A stretch of 57,381 bases of DNA, from assembly GCA_044508495.1 (NCBI GenBank), contig JBIQHP010000002.1:3128-60508 (forward strand), read 5' to 3'. The notes beneath the pieces were generated by a model. That model was not told the origin of the DNA, made no database searches, and saw only the letters and a list, made by a program, of their open reading frames with translations. Positions 7,803-22,557 of the stretch are shown piece after piece. Made by a program: the position numbers and the translations under genes. This stretch comes from Clavibacter sp. (GTDB taxonomy: Bacteria > Actinomycetota > Actinomycetes > Actinomycetales > Microbacteriaceae). The first letter of the stretch is position 1. Every line of letters begins with the position of its first letter.

Positions 7803-7818
<16 letters not shown>

Positions 7819-9029
7819 CTTTCTTCCTTGGACTGAATCACCGCGGCCGGCGAGGGGTTCGACGCGACCTGATGCGGTGTCTTTGATATCCGATAAGTGG
7901 GATTATTCCCGGTTCCCACTTGAGTATTGGTGCCCTTCGGCGCCGCGACGGGTGACGCAGTAACGGTGTCCGTGCTCGAGCTCGGCGCGACGGGTGGCTT
8001 CGGCCGAGGCGAACCACCGCCGGGCGAGGGTGGGGTGTCGTCCGGATCGTCGCCGTCAGCGGGGTCGTCGGCCTGCACCTCGACGCGAACGCTCGTGACC
8101 TCGAGGCCGGCGGTGTAGCCCCAGTACCGGCCGACGCTGCCGGTTCCCTCCCACGCTTCGGGGACCTCGTTCTGGTAGCCCTTGGAGGCGAAGGCGCCGT
8201 GTTTGCTGAAGTAGGCGGCGATGCGGGCCGGGTCTACGAAGTTGTACTCGCTCACGTGCGCGCCGATCCGCTCGTGCAGACCGTAGTCGCGCATCGCTTC
8301 GTCGACCCAGGCCGCGTGAAAATCGGGGTTCTCCGTTCCGGTGCCGTCGAGAGCGTGCTCGCGGTAGGCGGCGAGCTGCTCGTCGTCGCGAGCGTCGTAG
8401 CCGGCCGGCAGACACACCTGCGCCCAGGCGGGGCCGACCCATTCGGAGAACCGCATGCCGGAACCGCGGGCTCGGCCCGCCGGCGGCAGCATGAGCAGGT
8501 GGTAGTGGGGAGCCCCACGGCGTTGAAATTCGCGCTTCCATACGCAGATCAGCCGGCCACCCCACGCCCGCTCGTAGCGAGCAAGGAACGCGCGAAACCT
8601 CTTCCCGAGGCTCTGGGCATCGGGGGCGATGGCTAGCCAGCGGCGGGGGAGCGTGAGGGTCAGCAGGACCGGGAGACGGTCACCGTCGAACAGTGGCCGG
8701 TAGTCGAGGGTGGCGAGCCGATAGATCATGTAGTTGCGTGAGTGGCGGGACCACTCCTTCACGAGCCCGCGCGGGCCCCCGACCGTGCGCTCCTTCGGCT
8801 CGTCTAACATCAGGCCATTGTCGCAGCCCTCGCTGGAATCCTCCCAGTCCGAGGCCTGATACTCGCCCAGCTTCACGGCCGACGCGGAGGCCTCGAAGTA
8901 CCAGACGTTGCCCATCTGGACGGGCTTGCGATAGCTGCCGAAAGCCAGCCCGGAGACCCGCCGGGGTGCCCGTGGCATTCCGGCAACGGCGCGCTCTACA
9001 TCCGCCCGTGAGGGCAACAGCAGGGTCAC
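7803..9029 (-). CDS. Rolling-circle HUH replication initiator, 5' part (residues 1-381 phage/att-derived plus 27-aa host-derived tail)
   Basis: Motif I LLTLTLP, motif II WKREFQRRGAPHYHLL, motif III AAYFSKHG...KGYQN, GRYWG; GTG 9029 overlaps the pI stop (GTGA); ORF reads through attL. Confidence 0.9.
7886..7913 (+). repeat. attL: dif left arm joined to phage-derived spacer and a degenerate right arm
   Basis: ATATCCGATAA-GTGGGA-TTATTCCCGGT; left 11 bp identical to attR, right arm 6/11 identical. Confidence 0.85.
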
Positions 9030-9973
9030 AGGTGCAGGCGACCCATGCCGGCGAGCGCGTCTGCGATGCAGTCCGGGTCTTTGCACGCGGCCGGTCCCGG
9101 CAGGTCGAGGCCGTGCCGGCACTGATTATCGACCGCCGTGACCGAGTCGAGAGTGTTGTAGGCGGAGAAGGTGAGGGAGCCGGGGGCCCAGCACAGTTCG
9201 CGGCACAGCACACGGGCCCTACGGGACTTCAAATCGGAGCGGCCACCGAGCTCGAAGTTGAGCTGCTTCGTATCCTCGGACTGCATGAGGGACGAGCTGT
9301 CGAACGTAGTCAGGAACGCGACCCTGTTCGGTGCCCACAGAGACGATCGGGTGGGGTCGGAGCGCTGCTCTCGTCGGATCGCCGCCCAGTTGGGGAAGTG
9401 TCCTCGGCACTTCGTGACCGCCTGGGAGAGCTGGCGGAGGCGCCGGTCGGAGTTATCCCAGTCGATACCGGTCCACACGACTCGCACGTCGCGGCGCCGC
9501 ATCTGAGGGAGAAGCCGGCGGACCGGTTTCGGCATGCCCTGATCGCGGGAGTCCATGATGCCGGTTATCTCATCGAGCAGAATGTCGCCGTGCTCGAACT
9601 GGAAGAGCTGCGCCCATCCGGTGAAGGGAACATACAGCGGGTGCGGGTTCCCGGTGTGCGGGTCGAGAATCGCTACGGTCGAGAGCACCTTGCGCCCCAT
9701 GGCGATGGAGGGGAGGGTGTCGCGGATCATTGCCCACGTCTTGAAGTTGCCGTTGAGACCGATATAGCCGTGGATGGGGCTCGAGCGGCGTTTGCGGATG
9801 CCACGGGTGAGCAGCTTCGGGTTGCTCAGGTCGAGAGGGCCGGCCTCAGCGATCAGCTCACCCAGGTCTTCGTCCGTGAAGCCGGATGCCTCCTCACAGG
9901 TACCTTCGTGGCCGGCTACGGCGGCACAGATGCCGAGGCCGCAATACTCCACCGGTGTGGTTTCTAGGGTCAT
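9026..9973 (-). CDS. Zot-like / pI morphogenesis ATPase
   Basis: Walker A variant GLNGNFKT, Walker B ILLDE, QMRRRDVRVVWTG and DRRLR Zot-type motifs; RBS AGGAGG and ATGA overlap with the upstream gene. Confidence 0.88.
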   Translation of the reverse strand: MTLETTPVEYCGLGICAAVAGHEGTCEEASGFTDEDLGELIAEAGPLDLSNPKLLTRGIRKRRSSPIHGYIGLNGNFKTWAMIRDTLPSIAMGRKVLSTVAILDPHTGNPHPLYVPFTGWAQLFQFEHGDILLDEITGIMDSRDQGMPKPVRRLLPQMRRRDVRVVWTGIDWDNSDRRLRQLSQAVTKCRGHFPNWAAIRREQRSDPTRSSLWAPNRVAFLTTFDSSSLMQSEDTKQLNFELGGRSDLKSRRARVLCRELCWAPGSLTFSAYNTLDSVTAVDNQCRHGLDLPGPAACKDPDCIADALAGMGRLHL

Positions 9974-10242
9974 CCTCTTCCTCCTATAAACGGTAGATGA
10001 GCGATCAGTACGCGGGCTCCGCGCAGCAGGAGGCCGGCGACCCAGATGGTGAGTGGAATGGCGGCGAGGACGCCGATGAGTGTCCAGTCGAAGAACGCGC
10101 CGAGGCCGTCGCCCATGGCGAGGATTTCGTTGATCGTGTCGTCGAGGTGCACGAGGGACTCCGGCAACTCGAGCGTTGGGAAGAGGCTCACGATCCAGTT
10201 CACGAAGCCGGCGCCGACGTTGACGATCCACTCGATAATCAT
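9970..10242 (-). CDS. pVI-like minor coat membrane protein (90 aa)
   Basis: MIIEWIVNVGAG...HLPFIGGRG; hydrophobic, lies between pIII and pI, ATGA overlaps at both ends. Confidence 0.8.
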   Translation of the reverse strand: MIIEWIVNVGAGFVNWIVSLFPTLELPESLVHLDDTINEILAMGDGLGAFFDWTLIGVLAAIPLTIWVAGLLLRGARVLIAHLPFIGGRG

Positions 10243-12545
10243 CGGTAGTCGACCATTCCGGCGACTGCGCGCTTCGTGGCGACGAAGACGAGGACGGCGA
10301 AGGCGCACGTGGTGAGTGTGCGGGCGATGACACCGAGCGGGGCCATGACGCTGCCGTCGCAGAAGTCCCAGACCACCATCGTGCCGGGTTCCTGATCCCC
10401 GATAGTGGGCGTCCAGTTCACGGTTCGCGAGCATCCGGTTATGTTCGGGGTGAAGGACCAGTCGCCGATCATCGCGGCGAGTTGTCCGGGGGCTAAATGC
10501 TCGAAGCGGTTTTGAAGCTCGGCTCCAGCTAGATAGACCACGGCGGGTCGAGGAACGAAGGCCCATTCCAGCGCGCAACGAATCGGAGTGAGAATCCATT
10601 CGACTGGGTTAAATGCTGCCCAGCCCGACGCGAAGCATTCGCGTGCTACCTCGGGATTCTGGACCGGACTGTTCATAAGATCGTTGGCAGCGGATGGGGA
10701 GGACTGGCCTCCCGACCACTCGCCGGTCTCGGGGTCCGAATATGGCGCGCCAACTGTAAGACGTTCGGGCTTAAACACGCCCGAATAGACCGCGCACTCA
10801 GCCAGACTCACATCGTGCACGCCGTAGCGGCACTGGAAAGTGTCTTCCTTATCGGGATCCTCGAACCAATTAACGCATTGGTCAGGAGCGTCGAAACAAC
10901 TAGCGATAGCCGGGGATGAGTCGCCGGGTTTAATGAGCAGATCGAGCTTGCATGCCCCGGTCCTGCACTCCGGGTAGTTATCCCACCAGGCGGCATACTC
11001 GGGGGTAACGTCCTCCTGCCACATCACCTGATCGGGAACACCATCACCCTCGCCTTTAATTTCGACCCCAGTCGGGCGCACACCGTCCGGCAATGCCGGG
11101 CATTCGGCTCCCGCGAGACGCCCGCTGGACTCTCTATACGCTGCGGACTGTGCTGTATAGGTGTGGCCGTCGCTTCCCTCGATAGTGCACGTTAGCCACC
11201 GGGCCGGGTCGGGGTCCTTCGCGACGACCGCCATGCCGGTACTGCCGCCGATCCGGTCCTCCGCAATCCCGTAACGCAGAGCGAGAACGTCAGAGTGCGT
11301 CCCGATCGGCTGCTGCATGGAGAAGCAGAACCTGCCCGGCCCGAAAAGGTCATAACAGGCGCCCGTGATGTTGTTGAAACCGGACGCCGACTCGGACACA
11401 CCCAGAGACCTCCAGAGGTTGTCGTAGGCCATGCGACCCTGAATACTCCACGTATTCACCAGCCCGCCGGTATACTCAAGACCCATCACGCCGATATTCC
11501 CGCTCGACAACTTCGAGCTGAACCCGACACCGATCACCCGGAAACACTGCTCCGGCACCCGCGCCCGACACACCCACTCCGACGTGAACCCGGGGGTGAC
11601 ATCGTTATTCGCGGCGGCGTTCGCCTCAGCGCTCATCGCCCATCCGTTGCAGTCGGCGCCGGCCACATTTGCCAGCACGTCTCGGAGGACGCCCGGCTCC
11701 TGAGTACAGACACCGTAGTCTGGGTCGAATCCGAAAACCGCAGTGGCCAGATTGCCGAAAAGGAATCCTACCGGCATCATCGTCAGAGCTAGGGCGGCCT
11801 CACCGAGCGCGCCAACCGTTTTGCGCACCGGCCCAGCCTTAGTTGCCGCAGCGACCATCGGTTGGCCGTTCTTGCCACCCTTCGTCGCCTGCTGCTCGTA
11901 GGCATCAACTACAGCATCGTCGTAGGTGCCCGTTCCTCGTGCGGGAATGGGCCGGAGCTCACCGTCCGGCCCTCGCGTATTCGCGGAGTAGCCGAATTCC
12001 GTATTGAGCGCATCCCACGAGTAGTTATAGCGGTGCTCGTTCGCCAGCTGCTCGCGCCTCCACTTCTCGGGAGTCGCGCCCTTAAGGACCGACCCGAGCA
12101 CGTTTATCATGAACGCGCGCGGCTTCGAGGTCGAGGGCGTGAAGGGCTTAACGGTTGTTCTAGTGCCGGGCTTCCGGCCCTCGTTTACAGCCCTCTCATG
12201 CTCCTGCATCCACTTTGTTCGCTCGTCTAGAAAGTCGTTCATGTCGCCCGGTATAGAAGCCCAATAGTCGTCGAACTCCGAGAACTCCCATGGCTCAGGA
12301 GTCGCCGGCATGCCGACCGCGTAGCGCGCTTTGGTGAAGTCGAAGTATCTATCCCACTCGGCAACTGAGCAGGGGAAGTGCTCGTTGAATGGGTCAAGGC
12401 CGGATGTGCTCGCGAACGCGACGCAGTCCTTCCAGCTCGGAGGAATCGGCGGACCACCGGCAGCCGTAGCCGGAGTGGAATCGAGCACGATGCCGCCTGA
12501 AACGGCGATGCCGGCCACGATGAGGCCGGCGATAAGGCGATGCAT
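10239..12545 (-). CDS. pIII-like adsorption / minor coat protein (768 aa)
   Basis: Sec signal peptide (ATA-A), Cys-rich body, C-terminal TM anchor with basic tail; positioned between pVIII and pVI. Confidence 0.8.
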   Translation of the reverse strand: MHRLIAGLIVAGIAVSGGIVLDSTPATAAGGPPIPPSWKDCVAFASTSGLDPFNEHFPCSVAEWDRYFDFTKARYAVGMPATPEPWEFSEFDDYWASIPGDMNDFLDERTKWMQEHERAVNEGRKPGTRTTVKPFTPSTSKPRAFMINVLGSVLKGATPEKWRREQLANEHRYNYSWDALNTEFGYSANTRGPDGELRPIPARGTGTYDDAVVDAYEQQATKGGKNGQPMVAAATKAGPVRKTVGALGEAALALTMMPVGFLFGNLATAVFGFDPDYGVCTQEPGVLRDVLANVAGADCNGWAMSAEANAAANNDVTPGFTSEWVCRARVPEQCFRVIGVGFSSKLSSGNIGVMGLEYTGGLVNTWSIQGRMAYDNLWRSLGVSESASGFNNITGACYDLFGPGRFCFSMQQPIGTHSDVLALRYGIAEDRIGGSTGMAVVAKDPDPARWLTCTIEGSDGHTYTAQSAAYRESSGRLAGAECPALPDGVRPTGVEIKGEGDGVPDQVMWQEDVTPEYAAWWDNYPECRTGACKLDLLIKPGDSSPAIASCFDAPDQCVNWFEDPDKEDTFQCRYGVHDVSLAECAVYSGVFKPERLTVGAPYSDPETGEWSGGQSSPSAANDLMNSPVQNPEVARECFASGWAAFNPVEWILTPIRCALEWAFVPRPAVVYLAGAELQNRFEHLAPGQLAAMIGDWSFTPNITGCSRTVNWTPTIGDQEPGTMVVWDFCDGSVMAPLGVIARTLTTCAFAVLVFVATKRAVAGMVDYR

Positions 12546-12570
12546 GATCAGCCACCTTCCTGATGGGGGA

Positions 12571-12605
12571 GAGGGCCGTGCACCCTGATCCAGTGCACGG
12601 CCCTC
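12571..12605 (-). terminator. Hairpin after the major coat gene (terminator/attenuator)
   Basis: Perfect 13-bp stem GAGGGCCGTGCAC / GTGCACGGCCCTC with a 9-nt loop, 8 nt past the pVIII stop; no U-run. Confidence 0.8.
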
Positions 12606-12613
12606 GAGCGGCT

Positions 12614-12820
12614 CTAGCCGCGCACGAAGCGCTTGAAGAGCTTCCAGCCGATCACGACTGCGATGATGGTGCCGCCGACGCCGAGTGCGATCGGCAGAGC
12701 CGCCGCGACCTGCGTGGTGATGGCGGACACCGCCGCGGTGAGGGAGGTGCCGAGGTCGATCACCGGATCATCCATCGGCAGAGCACCGGACAGCACGAGG
12801 GCAAAGTGGAGTACCTGCAT
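12614..12820 (-). CDS. pVIII-like major coat protein (68 aa)
   Basis: Short leader, acidic DDP segment, amphipathic helix, TM segment, basic end GWKLFKRFVRG (compare M13 GIKLFKKF); GGAGG RBS. Confidence 0.88.
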   Translation of the reverse strand: MQVLHFALVLSGALPMDDPVIDLGTSLTAAVSAITTQVAAALPIALGVGGTIIAVVIGWKLFKRFVRG

Positions 12821-12826
12821 AGTTTT

Positions 12827-12931
12827 TCACCTCCCCCCAATGCGAGTCAGAGCCGCGAGGACTCCGACGACGACCCCGATGCCCAGAGCGGACACCAAGA
12901 CGGTAGCGGCAGACGCAAGATCGACGATCAC
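12827..12931 (-). CDS. Small hydrophobic protein (34 aa), pVII/pIX-like
   Basis: Manual translation MIVDLASAATVLVSALGIGVVVGVLAALTRIGGR; GTGA overlap with the upstream gene. Confidence 0.7.
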   Translation of the reverse strand: MIVDLASAATVLVSALGIGVVVGVLAALTRIGGR

Positions 12932-13011
12932 GAGTCCACCATCCACACGAATAGCTCCCAGGCGCGCAGAACACCCAGGATGACGCCGGAGAGCACGACG
13001 AGCTCGATCAC
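12928..13011 (-). CDS. Small hydrophobic protein (27 aa), pVII/pIX-like
   Basis: Manual translation MIELVVLSGVILGVLRAWELFVWMVDS; GTGA overlaps at both ends. Confidence 0.62.
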   Translation of the reverse strand: MIELVVLSGVILGVLRAWELFVWMVDS

Positions 13012-13139
13012 CTCGACCACATCGCTCTCACGACGACGACGCCTGCGACGAACAGCACCAGCGCCGCCGTCACCGCCGTCACATTCAGCGCCAGGTCGAG
13101 GCGTGCGAGGACCGCCTCGTAAAAGTCGGTCGAGGTCAC
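13008..13139 (-). CDS. Small membrane protein (43 aa)
   Basis: MTSTDFYEAVLARLDLALNVTAVTAALVLFVAGVVVVRAMWSR; GTGA overlaps at both ends. Confidence 0.7.
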   Translation of the reverse strand: MTSTDFYEAVLARLDLALNVTAVTAALVLFVAGVVVVRAMWSR

Positions 13140-13558
13140 TGGTGCCCCCCGGATGCGGCTCGCGGGGCGGTCAGCGTGAGAAGTACGCTCGCACCATGTA
13201 CTCGCGAGCCACCAACGACAGCATCCGGGCCGCGCTTCAAGAGCTGCGCCCGGGACTCGACGGAGAACGGCTCGACGCCGCTCACGAGCTCTGGATGCAC
13301 TGGTTCGGAGGCACCAGCCCCGACGACGTACCGCAGGGGACCCTCGCCGCGTTCCTCGCCGGCATCGATAGAGGCGGGCCAGCAGGAGCCGGAGTGCCCG
13401 GCTAGCCCCTTCCTGCGCTCGTAGTCGCGGCGGAAGGTGACCACCGCGAAGGACACGGCCCAGAGCACGCACGACAGCAGCAGAATGCCGGTCGTCCACT
13501 GATAGAACAGCGTCTCACCGATGGCCTGCGTCGCGAAGAGCCCGGGTGCTGTGGTCAT
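13136..13558 (-). CDS. Hypothetical phage protein with N-terminal TM helix (140 aa)
   Basis: ATGA overlap with the ssb stop and GTGA overlap downstream; TM segment followed by RRDYERRK. Confidence 0.6.
   Translation of the reverse strand: MTTAPGLFATQAIGETLFYQWTTGILLLSCVLWAVSFAVVTFRRDYERRKGLAGHSGSCWPASIDAGEERGEGPLRYVVGAGASEPVHPELVSGVEPFSVESRAQLLKRGPDAVVGGSRVHGASVLLTLTAPRAASGGHQ
13196..13405 (+). CDS. Possible nested antisense gene (69 aa)
   Basis: MYSRATNDSIRAALQELRPG...ELWMHWFGG...; -10-like TACGCT 6 nt before the ATG; GC-rich third codon positions. Confidence 0.4.
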   Translation: MYSRATNDSIRAALQELRPGLDGERLDAAHELWMHWFGGTSPDDVPQGTLAAFLAGIDRGGPAGAGVPG

Positions 13559-13947
13559 GCCGGCACCGGCTCCGGCTGCCTGGTCGTGAGCTTCTGGACG
13601 GTCGCCCGGGCGAAGCGCAGCGCCGGGCCTACGTCCTCGACCTCGAGCCGCCAGGTCGTGCGCTTCTCACCGTCCTTGGTCTCGTAGCGCTCCTGCGAGA
13701 GGCGACCGGAGACGATCACCCGGTCTCCCTTGTGAAGGGTCGCGGCCACGTTCTCGGCGTAGTCGCGCCACACCTGACAGCGCAGGAACGCCGCGTCCCC
13801 GTCCTCCCACGTCTGCGTCTCGGCGTTGTAACGCCGATCGGACTGGGCGACCGTGAACTCGGCCACGGCCAGACCCGAAGGCACATGCCGCAGCTCGGGA
13901 TCGGCCACGAGATTGCCCACCACCGTCAGTTTCATTTCGCCAGCCAT
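13555..13947 (-). CDS. ssb: Single-stranded DNA-binding protein, bacterial type, lacking the acidic tail
   Basis: VVGNLVADPELR...AVAEFTVA...FLRCQVWR...KGDRVIVSGRL...VGPALRFA; AAGGGAG RBS. Confidence 0.92.
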   Translation of the reverse strand: MAGEMKLTVVGNLVADPELRHVPSGLAVAEFTVAQSDRRYNAETQTWEDGDAAFLRCQVWRDYAENVAATLHKGDRVIVSGRLSQERYETKDGEKRTTWRLEVEDVGPALRFARATVQKLTTRQPEPVPA

Positions 13948-13974
13948 TGCTCACTCCCTTGATCTTCCCCGTAC

Positions 13975-14175
13975 TCAATCGTACAGTTTTGTACTAGTTA
14001 ACAAGGGGGGGCCGACAAATGCAAGAGCGGAGCGCGGGGGCGCCGGTATCGGCCCGGGCGCCGGGGGTTTTCCGGCGGGGGAGGGTAGCACTCGCTCCGC
14101 GGCGGTCAAGGGCTTTCGCGGCATATCCTCCCGCCCCCACGGGGGCGGTCCGGTATTCCACGGTCCCTTGACCTC
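13975..14175. other. Putative phage origin region (dso/sso hairpins) between divergent operons
   Basis: GTACA-GTTT-TGTAC (13981-13994), ACTAGT and GTTAAC palindromes, GCGGAGCG/CGCTCCGC (14027-14034/14093-14100), GGTCAAGGG/CCCTTGACC (14104-14112/14165-14173) enclosing CCGCCCCC-AC-GGGGGCGG. Confidence 0.6.
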
Positions 14176-14246
14176 TGCTCCCGCGAGCGCTGATCCGGCA
14201 GGTGCCGGAAAACGGCAGTGAGATTCGAGACATGAGGAGAACTCTT

Positions 14247-14405
14247 ATGAACAGCAGTATTCGGGAACGGGCCGAGCAGCTCAGAGCTGCCGCGTCAAAG
14301 ATGATCGATCGGGCCGACGAGCTCGAAACGCTGGAGCGGCAGCCGGTCGTGTACGTCGTCCCGGTGGACCCGGCCGACGCCACGCAGTGCGACGGGTGCC
14401 AGTGA
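14247..14405 (+). CDS. Small coiled-coil protein with C-terminal CxxC (52 aa)
   Basis: GAGGAG RBS; MNSSIRERAEQLRAAASK...VDPADATQCDGCQ; TGATG coupling to the next gene. Confidence 0.7.
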   Translation: MNSSIRERAEQLRAAASKMIDRADELETLERQPVVYVVPVDPADATQCDGCQ

Positions 14406-15004
14406 TGCGCGTGCTCGTCGGATGCGAGTACAGCGGACGGGTACGGGACGCATTCATCGCGGCCGGCCACGAGGCGATCAGCTGCGACATACTGCCGACC
14501 GAGCGCCCAGGTCCGCACATCCAGGGCGATGTGCGCGACCAGCTAGATGCCGGCTGGGACCTCGGAATCTTCCACCCACCCTGCACCTATCTCGCGAAAG
14601 TGAGTGCGGCGGCGCTGAGCTCGAATCCGGCTAGGTACGCGCAACTCGTGGACGCCGTTCAGCTCTTCCTCGACTGCCTGAACGCACCTATCACACACGT
14701 AGCGGTAGAGAATCCCGGGATGCTGCGCGCCGCCATGACCCTGATCGGTGAGCGCCCGGCGCAGTGGATCGAGCCGTACCAGTTCGGCCATCCTTACGCA
14801 AAGAAGACCGGCCTGTGGCTCCGGAACCTGCAACCGCTGCGAGCTACGCAGGTCGTGCAGCCTCGCGCGTCGTGGACCGAGGTGCACCGTGACGCTGCCA
14901 CTCGCTCTAAGACTTTCGAGGGGGTCGCCTACGCCATGGCCGCGCAGTGGTCTCAGCCGGCGCCGATCATGCCGGCACCGCTGTTCGACCTCGTCCGCCC
15001 GTGA
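14405..15004 (+). CDS. Phage-type DNA cytosine methyltransferase-like protein (199 aa)
   Basis: MRVLVGCEYSG SAM-binding variant, catalytic HPPCTYL, AVENP, QFGH...KKTGLW, RSKTFEGVAYAMAAQW. Confidence 0.8.
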   Translation: MRVLVGCEYSGRVRDAFIAAGHEAISCDILPTERPGPHIQGDVRDQLDAGWDLGIFHPPCTYLAKVSAAALSSNPARYAQLVDAVQLFLDCLNAPITHVAVENPGMLRAAMTLIGERPAQWIEPYQFGHPYAKKTGLWLRNLQPLRATQVVQPRASWTEVHRDAATRSKTFEGVAYAMAAQWSQPAPIMPAPLFDLVRP

Positions 15005-15366
15005 AGCGCGCGATCACGCTCGGGGATCTCGTGGAGGCGAGGTTTCTCCGGGCGTGCTCGCAGCTCGTCTACGAGCGGATCGCGCCGGCGAAGGAGAGCC
15101 GGCCATGGGTGAGCCTGTCCGTAGACCTTGCCGGCGCGCACGTCGGCTGGGTGCTGCGGCACTACATCGCGGACGATGTCTTCCTCGTGACAGCTGCGCC
15201 CCACGAGCTCGACGGGCGCCGCGGTGACGAGCCGCGCGTGTGGAAGCGCTACCCGCATGCGCGGCTGTGGACGGCACCGGACTGGCGCACCGGGCTGCAC
15301 GAGCCAGCAGTCGTCCTACGAGCCCTCATCGCGCTGGACGGGACGATCGATCTGCCGCTGAGCTAA
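15001..15366 (+). CDS. Hypothetical phage protein (121 aa)
   Basis: GTGA overlap with the methyltransferase stop; last gene of the divergent operon; no recognised motif. Confidence 0.65.
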   Translation: MKRAITLGDLVEARFLRACSQLVYERIAPAKESRPWVSLSVDLAGAHVGWVLRHYIADDVFLVTAAPHELDGRRGDEPRVWKRYPHARLWTAPDWRTGLHEPAVVLRALIALDGTIDLPLS

Positions 15367-15685
15367 TCGCTCGCGCAGCTCGAGGATGCGCGTCTGACGC
15401 GCACTGAGCGGGCCGACGAACGCCAGCTGGCTCGAGGTGCGCTCAGCCACGTAGCGGCTGATCGCTGAGGCTGTTGCCGGTCCGTCGTTGACGATCAGGA
15501 ATCCCTTGGAGCGGCCGGCCAGGTGATCGACTCGGCGGGTGACCTTGCGGTAACGGCCGTGAATCTCACCAGTCTCGTAGTCGATCTTCTCCCGCCAGAC
15601 CTTCTCGGTTCGGGCGTAGGACTTCGAGCGGCTGATGCCGCGCATCACACGACCGATCAGCACTCTCGGCTGTAATATCCGATAA
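15316..15685 (-). CDS. 3' part of the split rep gene
   Basis: Open from attR in the same frame the rep ORF uses through attL (TAT CGG ATA); encodes ...IDYETGEIHGRYRKVTRR...KGFLIVNDGPATASAISRYV; in-frame stop just upstream at 15697-15699. Confidence 0.8.
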
Positions 15686-15702
15686 TACTCATTATGTCAA
15701 CT
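15675..15702 (+). other. dif: dif-like Xer recombination site (attR)
   Basis: ATATCCGATAA-TACTCA-TTATGTCAACT: 11-6-11 layout, ATAA/TTAT inner dyad, right arm similar to the XerD arm TTATGTTAAAT. Confidence 0.88.
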
Positions 15703-15731
15703 CAAGCTGAGTTGCCTATGCGAACTGCACT

Positions 15732-15926
15732 TCAGGCCTCGTCGACGAAGATCTGCTCGATCGTCAGCCCGAACAGGCGAGCGAGAGCGAAGGCGGTAGG
15801 AAGGCTGGGGTCGAACTTGCCCGTCTCGATCGCGTTGATCGTCTGCCGGGACACGCCCAGCCGCTGCGCGACCTCGGCCTGGGTCCATGCCCGTTCGGCA
15901 CGGAGAGTCAGGATGTGATTCTTCAT
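15732..15926 (-). CDS. XRE/Cro-C1 HTH transcriptional regulator (64 aa)
   Basis: WTQAEVAQRLGVSRQTINAIETGKFDPSL; ATGA overlap with the upstream gene. Confidence 0.93.
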   Translation of the reverse strand: MKNHILTLRAERAWTQAEVAQRLGVSRQTINAIETGKFDPSLPTAFALARLFGLTIEQIFVDEA

Positions 15927-16339
15927 CGGTACCGGATCCTTCCGACGATGAAGGCGATCAGGTAGACGACCGCCATGGCGATCGGGAACACCGCGAAGTC
16001 GACCTCGGCCGGGATGAGTCCGCCGGCCTGGGCGACGACGTAGCCGGAGCCGAGAACCAGTCCCCCTCCCACGGCTGCTGCGAGTGCGTCCTGGAGAATC
16101 TTCCGCTGCAACTCGTCGATCGTCCGGAGGAAGCGCACGTATGCGGCGATCCACCCGACCCCCACGATCAGGTTCACCGCGATGGCCACCCAGGTAGCCG
16201 CGTGCGACGACTCCCCCCAGAGCCCGGGGCCGAACCGCGCGAGCGCGAGGCTCGCGACCCAGGCGGCGCCCCAGGCCGCCATGCCCGCCGTCGCCTTCAG
16301 CTCCATCCGATAGGCCTCGCTCCCCCGCGATGATTCCAT
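15923..16339 (-). CDS. Four-TM membrane protein coupled to the XRE regulator
   Basis: Four hydrophobic segments with a central IDELQRKI motif; GGAGGA RBS before ATG 16339. Confidence 0.85.
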   Translation of the reverse strand: MESSRGSEAYRMELKATAGMAAWGAAWVASLALARFGPGLWGESSHAATWVAIAVNLIVGVGWIAAYVRFLRTIDELQRKILQDALAAAVGGGLVLGSGYVVAQAGGLIPAEVDFAVFPIAMAVVYLIAFIVGRIRYR

Positions 16340-16355
16340 AATGTCCTCCGTATTA

Positions 16356-16411
16356 GTCAAGTACACTTGACACACTAGAGGCCTCGCGCGGAGATGTCAA
16401 GTCTACTTGTC
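16356..16411. promoter_or_regulatory. Twin palindromic operators for the membrane protein/XRE operon
   Basis: GTCAAGT-AC-ACTTGAC (16356-16371) and GTCAAGT-CT-ACTTGTC (16396-16411), 40-bp period, each followed by ACAC. Confidence 0.75.
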
Positions 16412-16903
16412 ACACGGGGTACGGGCGGGGGCGATCCCACCACGCGCGAGAGCGCATCAGCGATCTGCGAATACGGTCTCGAGCTCTTCCCGGACGTCAA
16501 CCGAAGGATCTATGGGTTCTCCTTCGACGGGACCTGGCCCGCCTACTACGGATCGCTGAGCGCGCGCTACGACAAGTGCGCGACCGAGCAGATACAGAAG
16601 CAGACAGCCAGCAAACCCGACGCCAATCCGGTTCAGATCGATCATGAGTCCCGCTACTACTGCTACGTGCTCCTGGTACGGGATTACGGCAAGGCCCCGA
16701 CTTCTTCTCCCCCGTCTTCCCCCGCTCCCGACGCCACCGTCGAGAAGACTGCCCCGACCTGCGAGGAGGCACAGGCAGTGGTTCAGGCGACGATCGATGG
16801 GGACGAAGACGCCTTTTACACGTTCAGCGATGACTATTTCGACGGCGACCTGCCTGCGGCCAACGAATGGCTCGCCGCCGAGTGCAGCCTGGGCTTCGAG
16901 TAG
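16394..16903 (+). CDS. Hypothetical protein, probably a 5'-truncated relic of an exported protein
   Basis: Several Cys and a Pro/Ser/Thr linker but no signal peptide; only ATG sits in the operator with no RBS. Confidence 0.45.
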   Translation: MSSLLVTRGTGGGDPTTRESASAICEYGLELFPDVNRRIYGFSFDGTWPAYYGSLSARYDKCATEQIQKQTASKPDANPVQIDHESRYYCYVLLVRDYGKAPTSSPPSSPAPDATVEKTAPTCEEAQAVVQATIDGDEDAFYTFSDDYFDGDLPAANEWLAAECSLGFE

Positions 16904-16929
16904 AGCAGGGCGCAGCGGGACCGGCGACG

Positions 16930-17073
16930 ACCCGCGTACCAGGGCCGAAGTCCCGCCTCTATGCCCTCCGGGGAGAGGTCGTGGTGTCAGTAGCGGTGCA
17001 CCTGCGGTCGAGCGAGCCAGTCGGCCAGGAGGGGGAAATCCCCCGCCGTGATCCGGCGCCAGCTGATCCGCAC
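16930..17073 (-). pseudogene. GNAT acetyltransferase N-terminal relic
   Basis: MRISWRRITAGDFPLLADWLARPQVHRY*HHDLSPEGIE, then a one-base shift to RDFGP; in-frame TGA, frameshift and truncation. Confidence 0.65.
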
Positions 17074-17122
17074 GTCGATCACGATACTTGCTCCTCGCGA
17101 TGCCTGCGGGCACCATGAGGAG

Positions 17123-17461
17123 ATGACCAAATACCTCATCTCCTTCCCCAGCGAAGCCATGGTGCTCACCGACGAGGAGTTCCCGATCGTCGTCGCCGAG
17201 TCCCACGCCGTGATCGAGGAGGCCAAGGTCGCCGGCGTCTACGTCTTCGGCGGCGGGATCGAGGAGAGCGTCGACCCTGTGCTCGTCTCGGCCGACGGCG
17301 CGGTGAGCTCCGAGATCTATCCGGGTTCCGAGCTCAAGGGCGGGTTCACCGTGCTGGAGCTGCCGACGCGCGAGGACGCCGTCGAATGGGCGAGGAAGAT
17401 CGCGGCGGCCTGCCGGTGCTCGCAGGAACTGCGGGAGTTCGGGTTCGACCCGCAGAGTTAG
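17123..17461 (+). CDS. YciI/DGPF-like protein
   Basis: MTKYLISFP...AGVYVFGGG...GGFTVLELPTREDAVEWARK; GAGGAG upstream. Confidence 0.85.
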   Translation: MTKYLISFPSEAMVLTDEEFPIVVAESHAVIEEAKVAGVYVFGGGIEESVDPVLVSADGAVSSEIYPGSELKGGFTVLELPTREDAVEWARKIAAACRCSQELREFGFDPQS

Positions 17462-17485
17462 GCGGGGTCGGCGGCTGCGCACCGC

Positions 17486-17836
17486 TCAGGGCAGCGGGAC
17501 CACGTAGGAGTCGACCTGCGCGATCAGGTCCCCCCGGAAGGTGAAGAGATCGTTGTAGGCGAACCGGAAGCGCCCGCTCTCGCGGTGGGTGCCCTGGCCC
17601 GTGCCCGTCACGACGACGATGTCCCCCGCGTCGATCGTCCTCTCCACGGTCAGCTCGGGGCTTCCCTCGAAGGCGGGATTCTCGATCTCCTCGTCGAACT
17701 CGGCCTTGCCGCTCGTGCTGCGCAGCCCGTGGATGTGCCAGACGACATCCTCGGTGAGGCAGCCGAGGATCGCCTCGTGGTCACTGCGCCGGAAGCCGTC
17801 CAGGTAGCGGTGAACGAGTCGTTCGCGGGTGTTCAT
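17486..17836 (-). CDS. SnoaL/NTF2-like family protein
   Basis: YLDGFRRSDHEAILGCLTEDVVW...DLFTFRGDLIAQVDSY; GAGGGAG RBS. Confidence 0.85.
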   Translation of the reverse strand: MNTRERLVHRYLDGFRRSDHEAILGCLTEDVVWHIHGLRSTSGKAEFDEEIENPAFEGSPELTVERTIDAGDIVVVTGTGQGTHRESGRFRFAYNDLFTFRGDLIAQVDSYVVPLP

Positions 17837-17849
17837 GGCGTACTCCCTC

Positions 17850-18299
17850 TCATCTCCGATCGAGCCCCTCCAGCACGACGTCGAGCCGCTCGAGGATGCC
17901 GGCCAGTCCGGTGCGAGCCTGCTCGGTGCGCAGATCGGGCGGCAGCCGCCGCTGGTGGACCGTGACGGTCGTGCCGGACCCCGTCGGCTCGAGGCGGATC
18001 TCCGTCGTGAGGCCGGTGACCGGTTCGACGAGCACCAGGCGGGTCGGCGGTTCGATCTCCTCGTAGCGGAATCGCAGCGGATAGCTGCAGCCGTCACTGC
18101 CGAGGGTCTCCAGCGCGAACGCCCCGCCGATGCGCAGGTCGACGGTGACCGAGTCCGGCAGGATCGTGGCATGGTCCCCGCCCCAGAACACCGCGAGATG
18201 CTCGGGAGTGGTGAACGCCTCCCACACCAGCCTCGGATCGGCATCGAGATATCGGGTGGCGATCAGCTGATCCCCCTCGAGAGCGACCCGCGCCGTCAT
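17850..18299 (-). CDS. SRPBCC/AHSA1 family protein
   Basis: LVWEAFTTPEHLAVFWG, DLRIGG, IEPPTRLV; coupled to arsR. Confidence 0.88.
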   Translation of the reverse strand: MTARVALEGDQLIATRYLDADPRLVWEAFTTPEHLAVFWGGDHATILPDSVTVDLRIGGAFALETLGSDGCSYPLRFRYEEIEPPTRLVLVEPVTGLTTEIRLEPTGSGTTVTVHQRRLPPDLRTEQARTGLAGILERLDVVLEGLDRR

Positions 18300-18643
18300 C
18301 GCACCGGCTCCCCCTGCAGCGCCACCAGGTGCTCCTCGAGCTGGTCGAGGCGCGACTCCCACTGCCGTCGCTGCTCGCTCATCCAGCCGATCAGCTCCCC
18401 CAGGCGCCCGGCATCCAGGCTGCAGGGGCGGCTCTGACCCCGGACCCGCTGCTGGATCAGTCCGCAGCGCCGGAGGATGCCGACATGCCGCGAGATGGCC
18501 TGATGCGTCAGTGCGAACGGCGCGGCGAGCTCTCCTACCGTCGCCTCCCCCGCCGCGAGCCGCGCGATGATCGCCCGGCGGGTGGGATCGCCGAGAGCAG
18601 CGAAAGCGGCGTCCAGGTCGGACTCGACGGCGGAGACGGTCAT
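18296..18643 (-). CDS. ArsR/SmtB family regulator
   Basis: FAALGDPTRRAII...ATVGELA...AISRHVGILRRCGLI. Confidence 0.92.
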   Translation of the reverse strand: MTVSAVESDLDAAFAALGDPTRRAIIARLAAGEATVGELAAPFALTHQAISRHVGILRRCGLIQQRVRGQSRPCSLDAGRLGELIGWMSEQRRQWESRLDQLEEHLVALQGEPVR

Positions 18644-18652
18644 CCTGTGATC

Positions 18653-18696
18653 ATATATTCAATGATCTCCTTGCGCAAGGATTTCATTGCATATAT
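18653..18696. promoter_or_regulatory. 44-bp imperfect palindrome, likely ArsR auto-operator
   Basis: ATATATTCAATGATCTCCTTGC/GCAAGGATTTCATTGCATATAT; 19 of 22 positions pair; about 10 nt upstream of the arsR ATG. Confidence 0.75.
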
Positions 18697-18761
18697 TCGC
18701 CGCAGATACAGATAGAGGTGCGACCTCTCCCCCGCTCATCCCCGATCCGCCGGGGAGGATG

Positions 18762-19112
18762 CTACGCCGGCGGCTCCCACAGCTCGATCGGGAGGCCCTC
18801 CGGATCGTGGATGCGGGCGAAGCGGCCGTAGTCGGTCTCCCACTCCGGCCGGCGCTCGACGGCGATGCCCGCCGCCTCCAGCTTCGCCGCGAGCGCATCG
18901 ATGTCCGTGACGCGGAGGTTGAGCATGAAGGGCTGGTCTGCCGGGAAATAGTCGCTGTCGGCGGGGAAGGGGGCGAAGACCGTCATCCCCTCCTGCTGCT
19001 GCCAGATGCCCTCATGACCCGCCTCGATGCCGAGGTGCTCGCGGTACCATGCCGTCCGGGCCTTCGGATCGCGACTGCGGAAGAAGATCCCCCCGATTCC
19101 CGTGACGTCCAT
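18762..19112 (-). CDS. VOC/glyoxalase family protein
   Basis: VTGIGGIFFRS...WYREHLG...NLRVTDID...GRFARIHDPEGLPIELWEP. Confidence 0.92.
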   Translation of the reverse strand: MDVTGIGGIFFRSRDPKARTAWYREHLGIEAGHEGIWQQQEGMTVFAPFPADSDYFPADQPFMLNLRVTDIDALAAKLEAAGIAVERRPEWETDYGRFARIHDPEGLPIELWEPPA

Positions 19113-19243
19113 GGCACGCCTCCCTGATTCACGAGGGCCTCGGCCGCGCTGCTCGCCGACCCTCGGTGGCGGTCAGCCTACCACCGGCCGATTCGACTCC
19201 ATCCCCCGCGCGAGCGTCGGCGACGCTTGCTAATGTGCAGGCC

Positions 19244-19762
19244 ATGAGCGAATTCACCGAGAGCCTGCTCGCCGACGGCCCCGCTGCCGAGGATGCGTCC
19301 GAGCTGGCGCTGTTCGGACGCTTCGTCGGAGAGTGGGAGGTCGGCAACCGCAGCCTGATCGAGTCGACCGGGGAATGGGTTGAAGGCCGGTTCCGGTGGG
19401 CATTCGCCTGGATCCTCGGCGGGCGCGGAGTGCAGGATGTCATCGCCTCCCCCGACGGCCATGCCCGTGGCACGACGGTGCGAATCCTCGACCCCGCACT
19501 CGAGGCGTGGCGGGTCTACTGGTTCGGCGTCGCCGGAGGCGATTACTGCGACCTGCGCGCCGTCCCGGATGGCCGGGACGCCATCCGGCTCGACGGCGTG
19601 CAGACCGACGGACGGCGCATCCACTGGCAGTTCAGCGACATCACGGTCGACTCGTTCACCTGGGAGGGACGCGTCTCGAACGACGGCGGGGCGTCCTGGT
19701 GGCTCGAGCAGCGCATGGAGGCACGTCGCCGCAGTCCCACCTCGACTGCCCTGCCGGCGTGA
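19244..19762 (+). CDS. Hypothetical beta-barrel protein (DUF1579-like)
   Basis: LFGRFVGEW, WILGGRGVQD, WQFSDIT...SFTWEG...DGGASW; -10-like TAATGT before the ATG. Confidence 0.75.
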   Translation: MSEFTESLLADGPAAEDASELALFGRFVGEWEVGNRSLIESTGEWVEGRFRWAFAWILGGRGVQDVIASPDGHARGTTVRILDPALEAWRVYWFGVAGGDYCDLRAVPDGRDAIRLDGVQTDGRRIHWQFSDITVDSFTWEGRVSNDGGASWWLEQRMEARRRSPTSTALPA

Positions 19763-19771
19763 TCGTCGCGG

Positions 19772-21931
19772 CTACCCGCGCCGCCCGGACGTGAGGATGA
19801 CGAGCCGCTGGGTCGCCCGGGTCATCGCGACATAGCGGTCGACGGCCCCCTCGATACCGGTGCCGAACGATTCCGGGTCCACGAGCACGACGAGGTCGAA
19901 CTCGAGGCCCTTGGCCAGCTCCGGCGCGAGCGACCGGATGCGGGCCGTCGCCTGGAAGGCCGGATCGCCGATGACGCACGCGATCCCCTCGGAATGCTCG
20001 GCGAGCCAGGCCGCGAGGATCGCATCCAGCCGGGAGGTCGACCCGTGTTCGACGGGAACGCCGCTCGCGCGGATGGAGGTCGGCACGTTGGCATCCGGGA
20101 GCACGGCCCGGATGACCGGCTCGGCCTCCGACATGACCTCCTCGGGGGTGCGGTAGTTGATGGTCAGCGAGGTCAGGGAGATGCCGTCGAGCCCGTTCCG
20201 TTCGAGGCGTTCCTGCCATGACTCGGCGAAGCCGTGCCGCGCCTGGGCCCGGTCCCCCACGATCGTGAGGCTGCGCGAGGGGCAGCGCTGCAGGAGCATC
20301 CGCCAATCCGCATCCGTCAGCTCCTGGGCTTCGTCCACGACGATGTGCGCGAAGGGCCCGGCCAGGGCATCGGGGTCCGCGCTCGGCAGCGCGCTCTCGT
20401 CGATCAGGCTGTTCCGGGCGTCCTGCCCGCGCAGCATCCGCATGAGGAGCAGCTCGGAGTCGTCCGCCGCGATGAGCTCGTCGACCACTCGGTCCCTGAC
20501 CTCCTGATCGGCGGCGATCGCGGCCTCGCGCCTGCGTCTGCGCCGGGACGCCTCGGGGTCGCCGATCCTCCGCCGCGCCGCGTCGAGAAAGGGCAGATCG
20601 GAGACCGTCCAGGCCCGGGGATCCTCGCGCTGAAGCTGCTGGATCTCGTCCGGGGAGAGCCACGGCGCGCACGCGTGCAGATAGGCCGTCACCGACCAGA
20701 GGTCGGCGACGACGCCGGGAGGGTCGAGCAGCGGCCACGCCCGGTTGACGGCGCCGGTCAGCTCCTCGTTCTGCAGCAGCGACCTGCGGAGCAGGTGGGG
20801 GGCCACCTCCTCCTCGTCGACCTGGGCGATCAGGATGCCCAGCACCTCCTCCCATACCTGTTCGCGCGCCTCGTTGTGCGGCAGGCCCGGATCCGCCGCG
20901 TCGAAGGCGTCCGCCCAGTCCGCGGCGCTGAGCCGGAGCTCGGACCAGGGCGTCTCGACGACGAGCTCGCGGGCCGGCGGTCGCTCGTAATGCCGAACCG
21001 CCGCCTCGATCGCCTCCGCCGGGTCAGCGGAGACCTTCAGCCGGACCACCCGGGGATCCGGCTCTGCGAGGGCCGCGTCGCCCTCCGGAACGAGATCGCG
21101 CAGCGTGCAGATCTGCACGCCCTCCTCGCCCAGACTCGGGAGGACGTCGGCGACGTAGGCCAGATAGGCCTCGTGCGGACCGACGAACAGGAGCCCTCCG
21201 CCCCGCGCGATCCGCGGCTCGGAGTACAGGAGGTAGGCGGCGCGATGCAGCGCGACGACGGTCTTGCCCGTTCCCGGGCCGCCGTCGACGACGAGCGCGC
21301 CCCTCGATCCCGCCCGGATGATGGCGTCCTGATCGGCCTGGATCGTGCTGAGCACGTCGCGCATCCGGGGCGACCGGCTGCTGCCGAGGCTCGCGATGAA
21401 GGCCGACTGGTCGTCGAGCGCGGCATGCCCCTGGAGCCCGTCCGAGGTGAAGACCTCGTCCCAGTAGTCGCTCACCCTGCCGCGAGTCCAGCGATACCTG
21501 CGGCGACTCGCCAGGCCCATGGGGTTGGCGTGAGTCGCTCCGAAGAAGGGCTCGGCCGCGGGAGAACGCCAGTCGACGAGCAATCGCCGGCCCCCGGCGT
21601 CCGCGAGGCCGAGCCGACCGACGTACACGGGCTCGGCACCGCCGGTTCCCACCATGCGTCCGAGGCACAGGTCCAGCCCGAAGCGGCGCAGGGTCCTCAG
21701 GCGAGCCGTCAGCCGATGGATCTCGAGGTCGCGGTCCATGGCCGCCTGCCCCTCACCGCCAGGCATCCTGCGCTCGGACTCCAGGCGGTCGGCGAGTTCC
21801 GCGATCGACGTCTCGAGGCTCTCCCGGATGGCGGCGAAACGGCGTTCGTCCTCGGCGATGAGCGCCGGATCGGTCTTGGCGACGAGACGATCGGGAAGAT
21901 CGAAGGCGCTGGTGCCGGTGCTGGGAGTCAC
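19772..21931 (-). CDS. helR: RNA polymerase recycling motor ATPase HelR (HelD-like, rifamycin protection)
   Basis: LDLCLGR, LVDWRSPAAEPF, TIQADQDAII, GGPGTGKT, DEAQE, KGLEFD, YVAMTRA; RAE upstream. Confidence 0.92.
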   Translation of the reverse strand: MTPSTGTSAFDLPDRLVAKTDPALIAEDERRFAAIRESLETSIAELADRLESERRMPGGEGQAAMDRDLEIHRLTARLRTLRRFGLDLCLGRMVGTGGAEPVYVGRLGLADAGGRRLLVDWRSPAAEPFFGATHANPMGLASRRRYRWTRGRVSDYWDEVFTSDGLQGHAALDDQSAFIASLGSSRSPRMRDVLSTIQADQDAIIRAGSRGALVVDGGPGTGKTVVALHRAAYLLYSEPRIARGGGLLFVGPHEAYLAYVADVLPSLGEEGVQICTLRDLVPEGDAALAEPDPRVVRLKVSADPAEAIEAAVRHYERPPARELVVETPWSELRLSAADWADAFDAADPGLPHNEAREQVWEEVLGILIAQVDEEEVAPHLLRRSLLQNEELTGAVNRAWPLLDPPGVVADLWSVTAYLHACAPWLSPDEIQQLQREDPRAWTVSDLPFLDAARRRIGDPEASRRRRRREAAIAADQEVRDRVVDELIAADDSELLLMRMLRGQDARNSLIDESALPSADPDALAGPFAHIVVDEAQELTDADWRMLLQRCPSRSLTIVGDRAQARHGFAESWQERLERNGLDGISLTSLTINYRTPEEVMSEAEPVIRAVLPDANVPTSIRASGVPVEHGSTSRLDAILAAWLAEHSEGIACVIGDPAFQATARIRSLAPELAKGLEFDLVVLVDPESFGTGIEGAVDRYVAMTRATQRLVILTSGRRG

Positions 21932-21955
21932 GATCGACCATTCTCGGCGACGACG

Positions 21956-21976
21956 GGGGGCTTGCGGCAAGCCCCC
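21956..21976. promoter_or_regulatory. Rifamycin-associated element (RAE)
   Basis: Perfect palindrome GGGGGCTTGC-G-GCAAGCCCCC, 24 nt upstream of the helR start; -10-like TACCTT at 21983-21988 on the minus strand. Confidence 0.88.
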
Positions 21977-22046
21977 TGCCGCAAGGTACAGTGAAAATGG
22001 AGGGACGTGGCATCTCCCCGATGGCTCGAGGCGAAGGAGAACCGCA

Positions 22047-22475
22047 GTGCTCGATGGTCTCATGGTCGACATCTCCTGGCTCGGAGTCGTCATCGGCGCC
22101 CTTGCGCTCTTCCTCCTCGGCGCGATCTGGTACGTGGCCATCTTCGGCAAGGTCTACCGTCAGGAGCTCGGCGTGCCTGAGCCGGCCGAGGGCGAGAGCC
22201 CGCTTCCTCCGGGAAGGGCGCTCGGCCGAGCGCTCGTCGGGCAGTTCGTGGCGGGACTCGTCGTCGCGATCGTCCTGGCCTGGTTGATCGGCAACTCCTC
22301 GGTCGGACGAGGGGCCGTCATCGGTCTCGCCGGAGGCGTGCTCGTGGCTGCGGCCCTCGGGCAGCTCCACCAGTTCGAGGGCAGGAGCCTGCGTCACCTG
22401 CTGCTCAACGTCGGCTACATGCTCGTCGGCCTCACGGCGGTCGGTGCCATCGTCGGCGCATTCCAGACGCCCTGA
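22047..22475 (+). CDS. DUF1761 family membrane protein
   Basis: ISWLGVVIGALALFLLGAIWY...FGKVY; four TM segments; AAGGAG RBS before GTG (alternative ATG 22062). Confidence 0.85.
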   Translation: MLDGLMVDISWLGVVIGALALFLLGAIWYVAIFGKVYRQELGVPEPAEGESPLPPGRALGRALVGQFVAGLVVAIVLAWLIGNSSVGRGAVIGLAGGVLVAAALGQLHQFEGRSLRHLLLNVGYMLVGLTAVGAIVGAFQTP

Positions 22476-22557
22476 CACTCGCCCGGCGGGTCGTATCCTC
22501 GTCCCATGGCCCCGCATCGACTCGGGGTCGAACGCGTCGGCCCCTGACCGCGCGGGG

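Follow-up and report, generated by a model that had tools for sequence, protein, structure and literature searches.

We describe a prophage of Clavibacter sp. whose attachment site (att) is located inside the gene of its own rolling-circle replication initiator (rep). The analysed DNA, hereafter the window, comprises 57,381 nucleotides of contig JBIQHP010000002.1 and contains a likely filamentous (inovirus-like) prophage of 7,789 bp, situated between two 11-bp repeats and inserted at the chromosomal dif site, i.e. an IMEX-like element (integrative mobile element exploiting Xer). We regard it as practically certain that the split of rep is real and conserved across a clade. It is also probable, judging from structural predictions, that placing att inside rep, where the Rep frame is whole only with the ends joined and where the cut likely inactivates the initiator, makes recombination a switch between the prophage and a replicating circle. 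A rolling-circle initiator residing in a chromosome is a hazard, and the quieting of repressor-poor single-stranded DNA (ssDNA) prophages is a largely open question; if true, this arrangement would be a minimal answer, in which two protein forms are set by a single recombination event with no phage integrase.

The split gene and the sites at the ends of the element are as follows (aa, amino acids):
7803..9029, minus strand: 5' part of rep; 408-aa HUH rolling-circle initiator, PF23343 above cut-off
15316..15684, minus strand: 3' part of rep; 122-aa frame predicted as helix, long basic beta-hairpin, GFLIVNDG, helix; separated from the 5' part in the prophage
7886..7913, plus strand: attL, inside the rep frame; XerC arm ATATCCGATAA (7886-7896), phage spacer GTGGGA, degenerate XerD-like arm TTATTCCCGGT
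15675..15702, plus strand: attR, i.e. the restored host dif; ATATCCGATAA TACTCA TTATGTCAACT, the sole full dif-like site in the assembly
7895..7928, no strand assigned: short inverted repeat next to attL; AAGTGGGA/TCCCACTT, whose loop contains the XerD-like arm, followed by TGAGTATT

The rep 5' part opens with GTG at 9029, a start that overlaps the stop of a pI-like gene and is aligned with the starts of the homologues P0004-P0006. Its frame crosses the left repeat, where 7895-7887 encode Y379-R380-I381, and continues for 27 more residues in host DNA to a stop at 7803. In the right repeat the same codons occupy 15684-15676 and lead into the 122-aa frame, which is open to the stop at 15316; an in-frame stop lies 4 codons outside the repeat. 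The joined ends thus give a single open rep frame of 500 codons (378 + 122 = 500 aa). An earlier note on this DNA had already described the crossing of the left repeat and the 408-aa form with its 27 host residues, and re-derivation gave the same coordinates; its proposal that joining the ends restores a 500-aa Rep agrees with a frame that is open once the two ends are set in register. The 408-aa form contains HUH motif I (LTLTLP), motif II (HYHLL) and, by alignment, motif III (Y273), and the att site lies inside its low-complexity linker (approximately residues 322-378). The profile of the pSAM2 initiator RepSA (PF20199) scores 15 bits on this form vs a curated cut-off of 34, and some homologues bear the RepSA label.

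Judged by homology, the right-end peptide represents the conserved C-terminal region of this family of Reps, as the earlier note had supposed. The search found 168 homologues, of which 120 were listed, 119 besides the window's own. The peptide matches the C-termini of 89 of these 119 (E <= 0.01), and the 30 non-matching ones include truncated forms such as P0005 and P0009, which end in the linker. The three closest whole homologues (P0003, P0004 and P0006; 466-481 aa, encoded on 7-8-kb contigs) carry both parts in a single chain, with 54-58% identity to the 5' part and 62-64% identity to the 3' part over ~100 aa. A profile of the C-part detected 572 representatives; among the 145 new ones listed, 80 are at least 330 aa long, and the N domain is present in all 80. 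In whole Reps without dif the two parts are mostly connected by a link of 3-5 aa. A natural end of Rep near residue 320-380 was rejected, since whole homologues continue into the C-part.

The 11-bp repeat ATATCCGATAA is, by its sequence, the XerC arm of the host dif site, an identity missed by the earlier note (for the naming of the arms and the geometry of cleavage we rely on established knowledge and PMC5357621). A script search of the window found exact copies at 7886-7896 and 15675-15685 and no other, and the whole 2.24-Mb assembly contains one extra copy with 1 mismatch; the repeat was not among the 20 largest families of the repeat finder. With a matrix built from 44 host dif sites, the attL arms score 18.0 (XerC) and -0.1 (XerD-like). 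Of 61 genomes from the genus, the family and the order, 51 contain the dif pattern, mostly in single copy (reversed control, 0). Homologues of the left flank of the window lie near dif in all 13 same-genus loci fetched; in 6 of the 13 a uvrA-like gene ends less than 150 bp from dif, and here it ends 68 bp before the left repeat. The host assembly encodes two tyrosine recombinases, one above the XerD cut-off and the other best matched by XerC, below the cut-off. Searches of the element's proteins with Pfam and PHROG profiles gave no match to an integrase, and the window contains no tRNA, so tRNA-targeted or own-integrase insertion was ruled out. An empty-site joint (7885->15675, with 11 shared letters and the TACTCA spacer) was found in the contigs of two of four sequencing runs of one study, X1 (possibly the source of the window) and X3. 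This joint places the crossover inside the XerC arm or at its inner edge. Neither a tandem copy nor a second rep was found elsewhere in the assembly, which is 88% complete.

The host dif site itself deviates, in its spacer TACTCA and its arm TTATGTCAACT, from the genus pattern TTATGTCAG. The ~7 kb to its right (15703-22550), with genes for a helix-turn-helix (HTH) and a membrane protein, SnoaL, an AHSA1/ArsR pair, a glyoxalase and a UvrD-like helicase, have no match in the 13 same-genus dif loci. An older Xer-delivered island may have replaced the host dif, given its departure from the genus pattern. Three dif-like matches, one of them on a 165-kb contig, occur in one genome (G026; L091-L093).

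The earlier note had suggested looking for the same split in related prophages, and it is present there. The survey drew 47 loci from collections of genomes and viruses, 14 stretches from family genomes (12 of 400 contributing) and, from metagenomes, the best 80 of 138 loci; a repeat of the family-wide genome search returned the same genomes, and an order-wide search added 3 further genomes of 400. Eleven relatives are split alike (L044, L047, L049, L055, L056, L123, L126, L132, L191, L164 and G360, the last consisting of two presumptively paired contigs): the N part leads into a dif arm, and the C part lies at the opposite end. Their att sites were picked by matrix score with the frame disregarded, and L164 was left out of the frame test, as the start of its contig truncates the second site. 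In all 10 testable relatives the rejoined rep is in frame and stop-free, with linkers of 4-185 residues (p = 1.7e-5 if independent). The agreement of frame is therefore not the 1-in-3 coincidence for which the earlier note had allowed. Moreover, a dif arm lies inside an unbroken rep in the natural contigs L134, L193 and L209, as would be expected of the free phage.

The site occurs in three layouts: (i) inverted, with the XerC arm kept (the window, L044 and L123), (ii) direct, with the XerD arm kept (L047, L049, L055, L056, L132 and G360), and (iii) direct, with the XerC arm and spacer kept, protein-coded and involving almost no insertion (L126 and L191). Past the att site the relatives have host-derived tails of 3 to 163 codons, and their 3' parts have no common start; the open frames joined to the C-part from upstream in L126, L125, L056, L047 and L049 are not Rep N-parts.

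Several details of these loci deserve mention. A TLC-like att is encoded in the first C-part helix at L126:5143 and L191:5211 (Rep orientation), giving peptides such as IMHIARM. The XerD arm is kept and the XerC arm lost or shifted in L047, L049, L055, L056, L132, L124, L134, L136, L166, L180 and L209; XerD-arm-keeping sites have spacer homology beside the XerD arm, the spacing is 7 bp in L134 and L136, and in several relatives an in-frame ATG is contributed by the XerD arm (IMS peptides). L133 and L122 (G093:C5:745-978) contain C-part remnants that stand alone, at a distance from any detected N part; the one in L122 is on a separate contig of a genome that also holds a complete split element. 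A tyrosine integrase lies near 5 of 18 whole-Rep loci (68 of 131 called open reading frames (ORFs) scanned); L127, L128, L129, L062 and L066 combine a whole Rep with their own tyrosine integrase, and in L127, L129 and L062 there are methylase, HNH/Vsr or AbiH genes as well, which makes these three small defence islands. At L072:1845-3047 and L159:5108-6292 the same Rep family stands beside a match to a P3-like (double jelly-roll) capsid protein, which suggests that it also serves a non-filamentous virus group.

The split-bearing Reps were placed in trees based on the catalytic domain only, with rows labelled by the dif feature before tree building. Directly behind the catalytic domain there is a dif arm (score at least 13) in 25 of 26 clade loci, the contig of the 26th ending within the site, vs none of 83 outside; an arm of this score was met in 49 of 3000 random stretches. 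The arms after the catalytic domain of clade Reps occur in both orientations and in all three frames. In the outgroup, two inovirus-like elements, L042 and L213, are flanked by dif sites; their rep is whole and their att lies outside it. When the closest homologues were added (58 rows, 23 of the 83 outside rows among them), the other 35 all fell on one side, with a Shimodaira-Hasegawa-like approximate likelihood-ratio (SH-aLRT) support of 94. An independent origin of the window's split, suggested by a first tree, is not suggested by this one, and one origin followed by repeated remodelling of the site is the simplest reading of these sequences.

What the cut removes from Rep was approached through models and covariation. 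The model of the whole P0003 protein (predicted local distance difference test score (pLDDT) 81, predicted template modelling score (pTM) 0.79) has a disordered linker at 324-355 (pLDDT <50) and a C-part above 90, consisting of a helix, a long hairpin, a short strand and a helix. It resembles HUH nucleases, with a middling score against MVM NS1 (Z 7.9, root-mean-square deviation 5.5, 166 aligned), and also ORF2/G2P viral Reps. When modelled alone, the window's C-part reached a pTM of 0.47, with the short GFLIV strand unformed; structure comparison of the C-part alone gave a best Z of 4.2. No solved homologue of Rep was found by sequence, nor by Foldseek on the PDB at E <= 0.001. In a mean-field covariation analysis of 299 natural whole sequences (P0003 numbering), the pairs R268-N420, A105-V418 and D265-N420 ranked 8, 9 and 11 of ~44,000, the top pairs including expected hairpin contacts. 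These three recur at ranks 51, 14 and 63 in 79 newly added separate sequences, where other early N-C pairs (e.g. Y305-L368 and I51-P423) showed no recurrence. Since D265 and R268 begin the catalytic-tyrosine helix (D266, R269 and Y273 in the window), this helix is predicted to be braced by the NDG motif, which integration removes. The lost C-part is thus predicted to pack against the helix, and the 408-aa form is likely inactive. The earlier note had cautioned that the truncated Rep might still nick; its observation that HUH motifs I-III all lie in the 5' part stands, and the caveat is weakened by the predicted position of the lost part on the catalytic helix.

We propose that host XerCD would insert the phage circle at dif by a crossover at the XerC side of the spacer. 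Insertion would cut rep and leave a 408-aa form without the strand and helix that pack on the catalytic-tyrosine helix and without the basic hairpin, which likely binds DNA. Such a protein would be unable to start rolling-circle replication inside the chromosome, and Xer-mediated excision would rebuild the 500-aa Rep. The host terminus would be guarded from nicking and in-situ replication, and no rep repressor would be needed. On the strength of the models, we hold with reasonable confidence that the split switches replication off. A wider proposal, which we favour by a narrow measure, is that in a clade of actinobacterial filamentous phages the host chromosome-segregation recombinase constitutes the whole lysogeny switch: XerCD would cut Rep between the catalytic domain and the part that completes its fold, and excision would rebuild it. 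The site would have been re-invented in both orientations, with either Xer arm and in all three frames, always at this point of rep, and the members keeping only the XerD arm would represent an attachment type outside the three Vibrio classes.

The earlier note had also offered the split as an explanation for the missing repressor, and as a general rule this is not supported. A small HTH gene, detected with a profile built from three HTH-like ORFs spotted by eye, is present in 2 of 10 split vs 8 of 17 whole-Rep elements (p = 0.23), and these counts do not support the idea that the split replaces a repressor. Pfam found neither an HTH protein nor an integrase in the split relatives (92 of 135 called ORFs). 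No HTH protein was detected within the window's element, and the HTH gene at 15732-15926 is located beyond the right repeat.

A number of observations weigh against the proposed switch or the evidence for it. The 2 of 10 split elements with a small HTH gene are among them, as is the presence of all three HUH motifs in the 5' part. The common descent of the relatives inflates the frame statistic. In the first tree (109 rows; 30 duplicate, near-identical or incomplete loci left out), 24 dif-bearing Reps and L169 formed the starred clade, and the window's Rep stood outside it on a long branch; the support of 94 for the clade comes from a quick tree. The structural case combines predictions from different proteins, made at alignment depths of 106 vs 28 rows, and the alignment behind it is of modest size (228 effective sequences). 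Moreover, the phage spacer GTGGGA shares 1 of 6 bases with the host TACTCA and none beside the XerC arm, unlike L044 and L123. This mismatch of 5 of 6 bases is at odds with VGJ-type exchange as given in PMC5357621, and the window's copy may excise poorly. No circular junction of the element was found in the contigs of the four runs, contigs being prone to drop rare variants. The sequence TGAGTATT adjoining the attL hairpin is the complement of the host spacer plus 2 bases (8 nt); this could give pairing in ssDNA or form part of a local hairpin. The attL inverted repeat folds with a z of about -3 on both strands (120 nt folded). A conserved attP hairpin was rejected as a general feature, with z from -2.3 to +1.4 in 9 relatives.

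Several of these points would suit a passive history, in which the split is real and switches nothing: att would have come to lie in one tolerant rep loop of a compact genome and been inherited once, any silencing would act via promoters or small regulators, and the loss of Rep would be a side effect or a dead end. The HTH gene in some split elements, the mismatched spacer and the lack of an excised circle would all fit, and a single clade can account for all cases. We nevertheless think this unlikely: the site has been remodelled several times (two orientations, either arm, three frames, linkers of 4-185 aa), always between the two parts, and the outgroup elements show that intergenic att sites work. 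In addition, all 10 testable prophages have kept the two halves intact, which speaks for regular reactivation or recent insertion.

Somewhat less probable still is a prophage that makes an active initiator, either because the 408-aa form nicks or because the halves are expressed separately and reassemble, resulting in tuning or CTX-like production from the chromosome. The 5' part retains motifs I-III and the cut falls in a disordered linker, where split proteins can complement; covariation and models, on the other hand, tie the C-part to the catalytic helix. For separate expression of the 3' part there is an in-frame GTG at 15663 (115 aa), which no clear ribosome-binding site precedes on reading the sequence, and the 3' parts of the relatives share no start. 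The XerD arm of dif forms an extended -10-like match leading into the rep 3' part (15718-15691, minus strand; 1 found vs 1.3 expected from chance), and the adjacent host gene is oriented towards it, no terminator being listed. The depth of run X1, 13.8 in the element vs ~24 in its flanks, speaks against this reading, with the reservation that depth is no copy number.

The least probable reading gives one fragment an active role in the lysogen. The truncated N-part, or else the basic C-part, would bind the origin or whole Rep and block the replication of incoming related phages, as a Rep-based, integration-dependent immunity. In its favour, rep follows the pI-like gene and is coupled to it, so that reading of the operon would yield the 408-aa form, 8 of 10 split elements lack a recognisable HTH gene, and truncation alters function in BPs (PMC3694055) and was proposed to do so in phiRSS0 (PMC3816273). 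Against it, host-derived tails of 3 to 163 codons suggest no selected product.

The remaining genes of the prophage are as follows:
9026..9973, minus strand: pI-like morphogenesis ATPase, start uncertain; phrog_20922 E 3.4e-23, Zot-like phrog_197 E 0.004
9970..12545, minus strand: 90-aa membrane protein and 768-aa protein; no family match, homologues in related elements
12614..12820, minus strand: major coat protein candidate; PF19199 E 0.0012 (below cut-off), phrog_1646 E 0.001
13008..13947, minus strand: small membrane ORFs and a single-strand DNA-binding protein (13555-13947; PF00436 E 1e-27)
14247..15366, plus strand: divergent three-gene unit; 52-aa ORF, DNA-methyltransferase-like protein (14405-15004; phrog_757 E 4e-44) and 121-aa ORF

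The single-strand DNA-binding protein, membrane proteins, coat candidate, 768-aa protein, pI-like ATPase and rep are all encoded on one strand. Homologues of the ATPase occur in 44 loci, the product of 12614..12820 is likely the major coat protein, and the 90-aa and 768-aa proteins are, from their position, likely minor virion or adsorption proteins. Inovirus-like filamentous phages (Tubulavirales) have genomes of 5-12 kb; the 7,789 bp of the element and its PF23343 initiator fit this size and mode of replication. Rep has no matching record among 50,697 phages and matches 12 of 72,556 plasmid records. Profile searches found no family for the 52-aa and 121-aa ORFs. The latter overlaps with its end that of the rep 3' part, and its ESM Atlas leads are all below 0.9; the former (14247-14405) has a C-terminal motif like D-x-x-x-C-D-x-C-Q, and L047, L056 and L132 have small divergent ORFs that end similarly. 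At position 9097, inside the pI-like gene, 3 of 4 runs have G vs C in the window.

Like the Vibrio IMEX VGJphi, TLCphi and CTXphi (PMC5357621), the element targets dif and has no integrase, and its attP is an exact fit to none of the three types as characterised there. The VGJphi type has a single dif-like site with spacer homology on the XerC side, as does the relative L044 (TCA common) and not the window's element. The TLCphi type, with XerC arm and spacer like dif and a divergent XerD arm, is that of the relatives L126 and L191 and again not of the window's element, whose spacer differs. The attP of the CTXphi type consists of two inverted dif-like sites ~90 nt apart, folding into ~150 bp; of such features the window's element has an 8-bp hairpin and the 8-nt host-spacer complement, with no second XerC arm in the element (120 nt folded). 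The XerD-arm-keeping phage sites fit none of the three. Gokushovirus prophages of enterobacteria (PMC7062461) likewise target dif with no integrase, and they resemble the window's element in having a good XerC arm and a divergent spacer and XerD arm. Their dif motifs are described as mostly non-coding or at gene ends, occasionally at the VP4 N-terminus, other coding matches having been discarded as false; discarding in-gene dif matches in this way can hide a mechanism, just as annotation pipelines will label Reps of the present kind truncated.

The earlier note's parallel with mycobacteriophage BPs (PMC3694055), in which the recombination state sets the form of a protein in an actinobacterial host, holds in that attP lies inside a gene with two protein forms. 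The BPs att is in the repressor gene, next to the phage's own integrase, and integration activates the repressor by removing a degradation tag; in the window's element there is no integrase, the gene encodes an HUH Rep, and integration likely inactivates it by removing a conserved folded region found also in plasmid and island Reps. Closer are dif-integrating phages with attP in a putative regulator. XacF1 (PMC5666396), a 7-kb Xanthomonas inovirus that uses dif and XerC/D, has attP within a coding region and splits ORF12 in two; ORF12 is a possible regulator and not an initiator, and the host is Gram-negative. In the Ralstonia phage phiRSS0 (PMC3816273) a dif-type attP in a gene shortens an HTH regulator from 156 to 130 aa on integration, with a functional difference proposed; 26 aa are lost there, and here the loss is of 119 aa from a part of Rep that is conserved and structurally linked. 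The earlier note's remark that it was not aware of such an arrangement in a filamentous phage must therefore be narrowed, since att inside a gene is known from XacF1 and phiRSS0. An att that splits a rolling-circle initiator was not found in the open full-text literature searched (mostly titles and abstract openings). The searches likewise found no paper on dif-integrating inoviruses of Microbacteriaceae and no cultured record of them; such prophages are documented here.

In the haloarchaeal pleolipovirus SNJ2 (PMC13107129), replication functions are restored only on excision and circularisation, which experimentally gates the lysogeny-replication switch. There an operon is joined to its transcription start, the Rep gene stays intact, the integrase is the virus's own and the initiator is Rep_trans-related, not HUH. 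The plasmid and island initiators of the PF23343 REP_ORF2-G2P/pSAM2 RepSA-like type belong to the same family as the window's Rep and have the same two-part architecture; their parts are mostly joined by 3-5 residues, without dif, and the integrase-bearing relatives keep Rep whole. A split-Rep cassette could accordingly act as a recombination-gated replicon in Actinobacteria. Compared with these precedents, which split repressors or regulators (XacF1, phiRSS0 and BPs) or an operon (SNJ2), the present case is distinguished by recombination-gated gene forms that act on the initiator.

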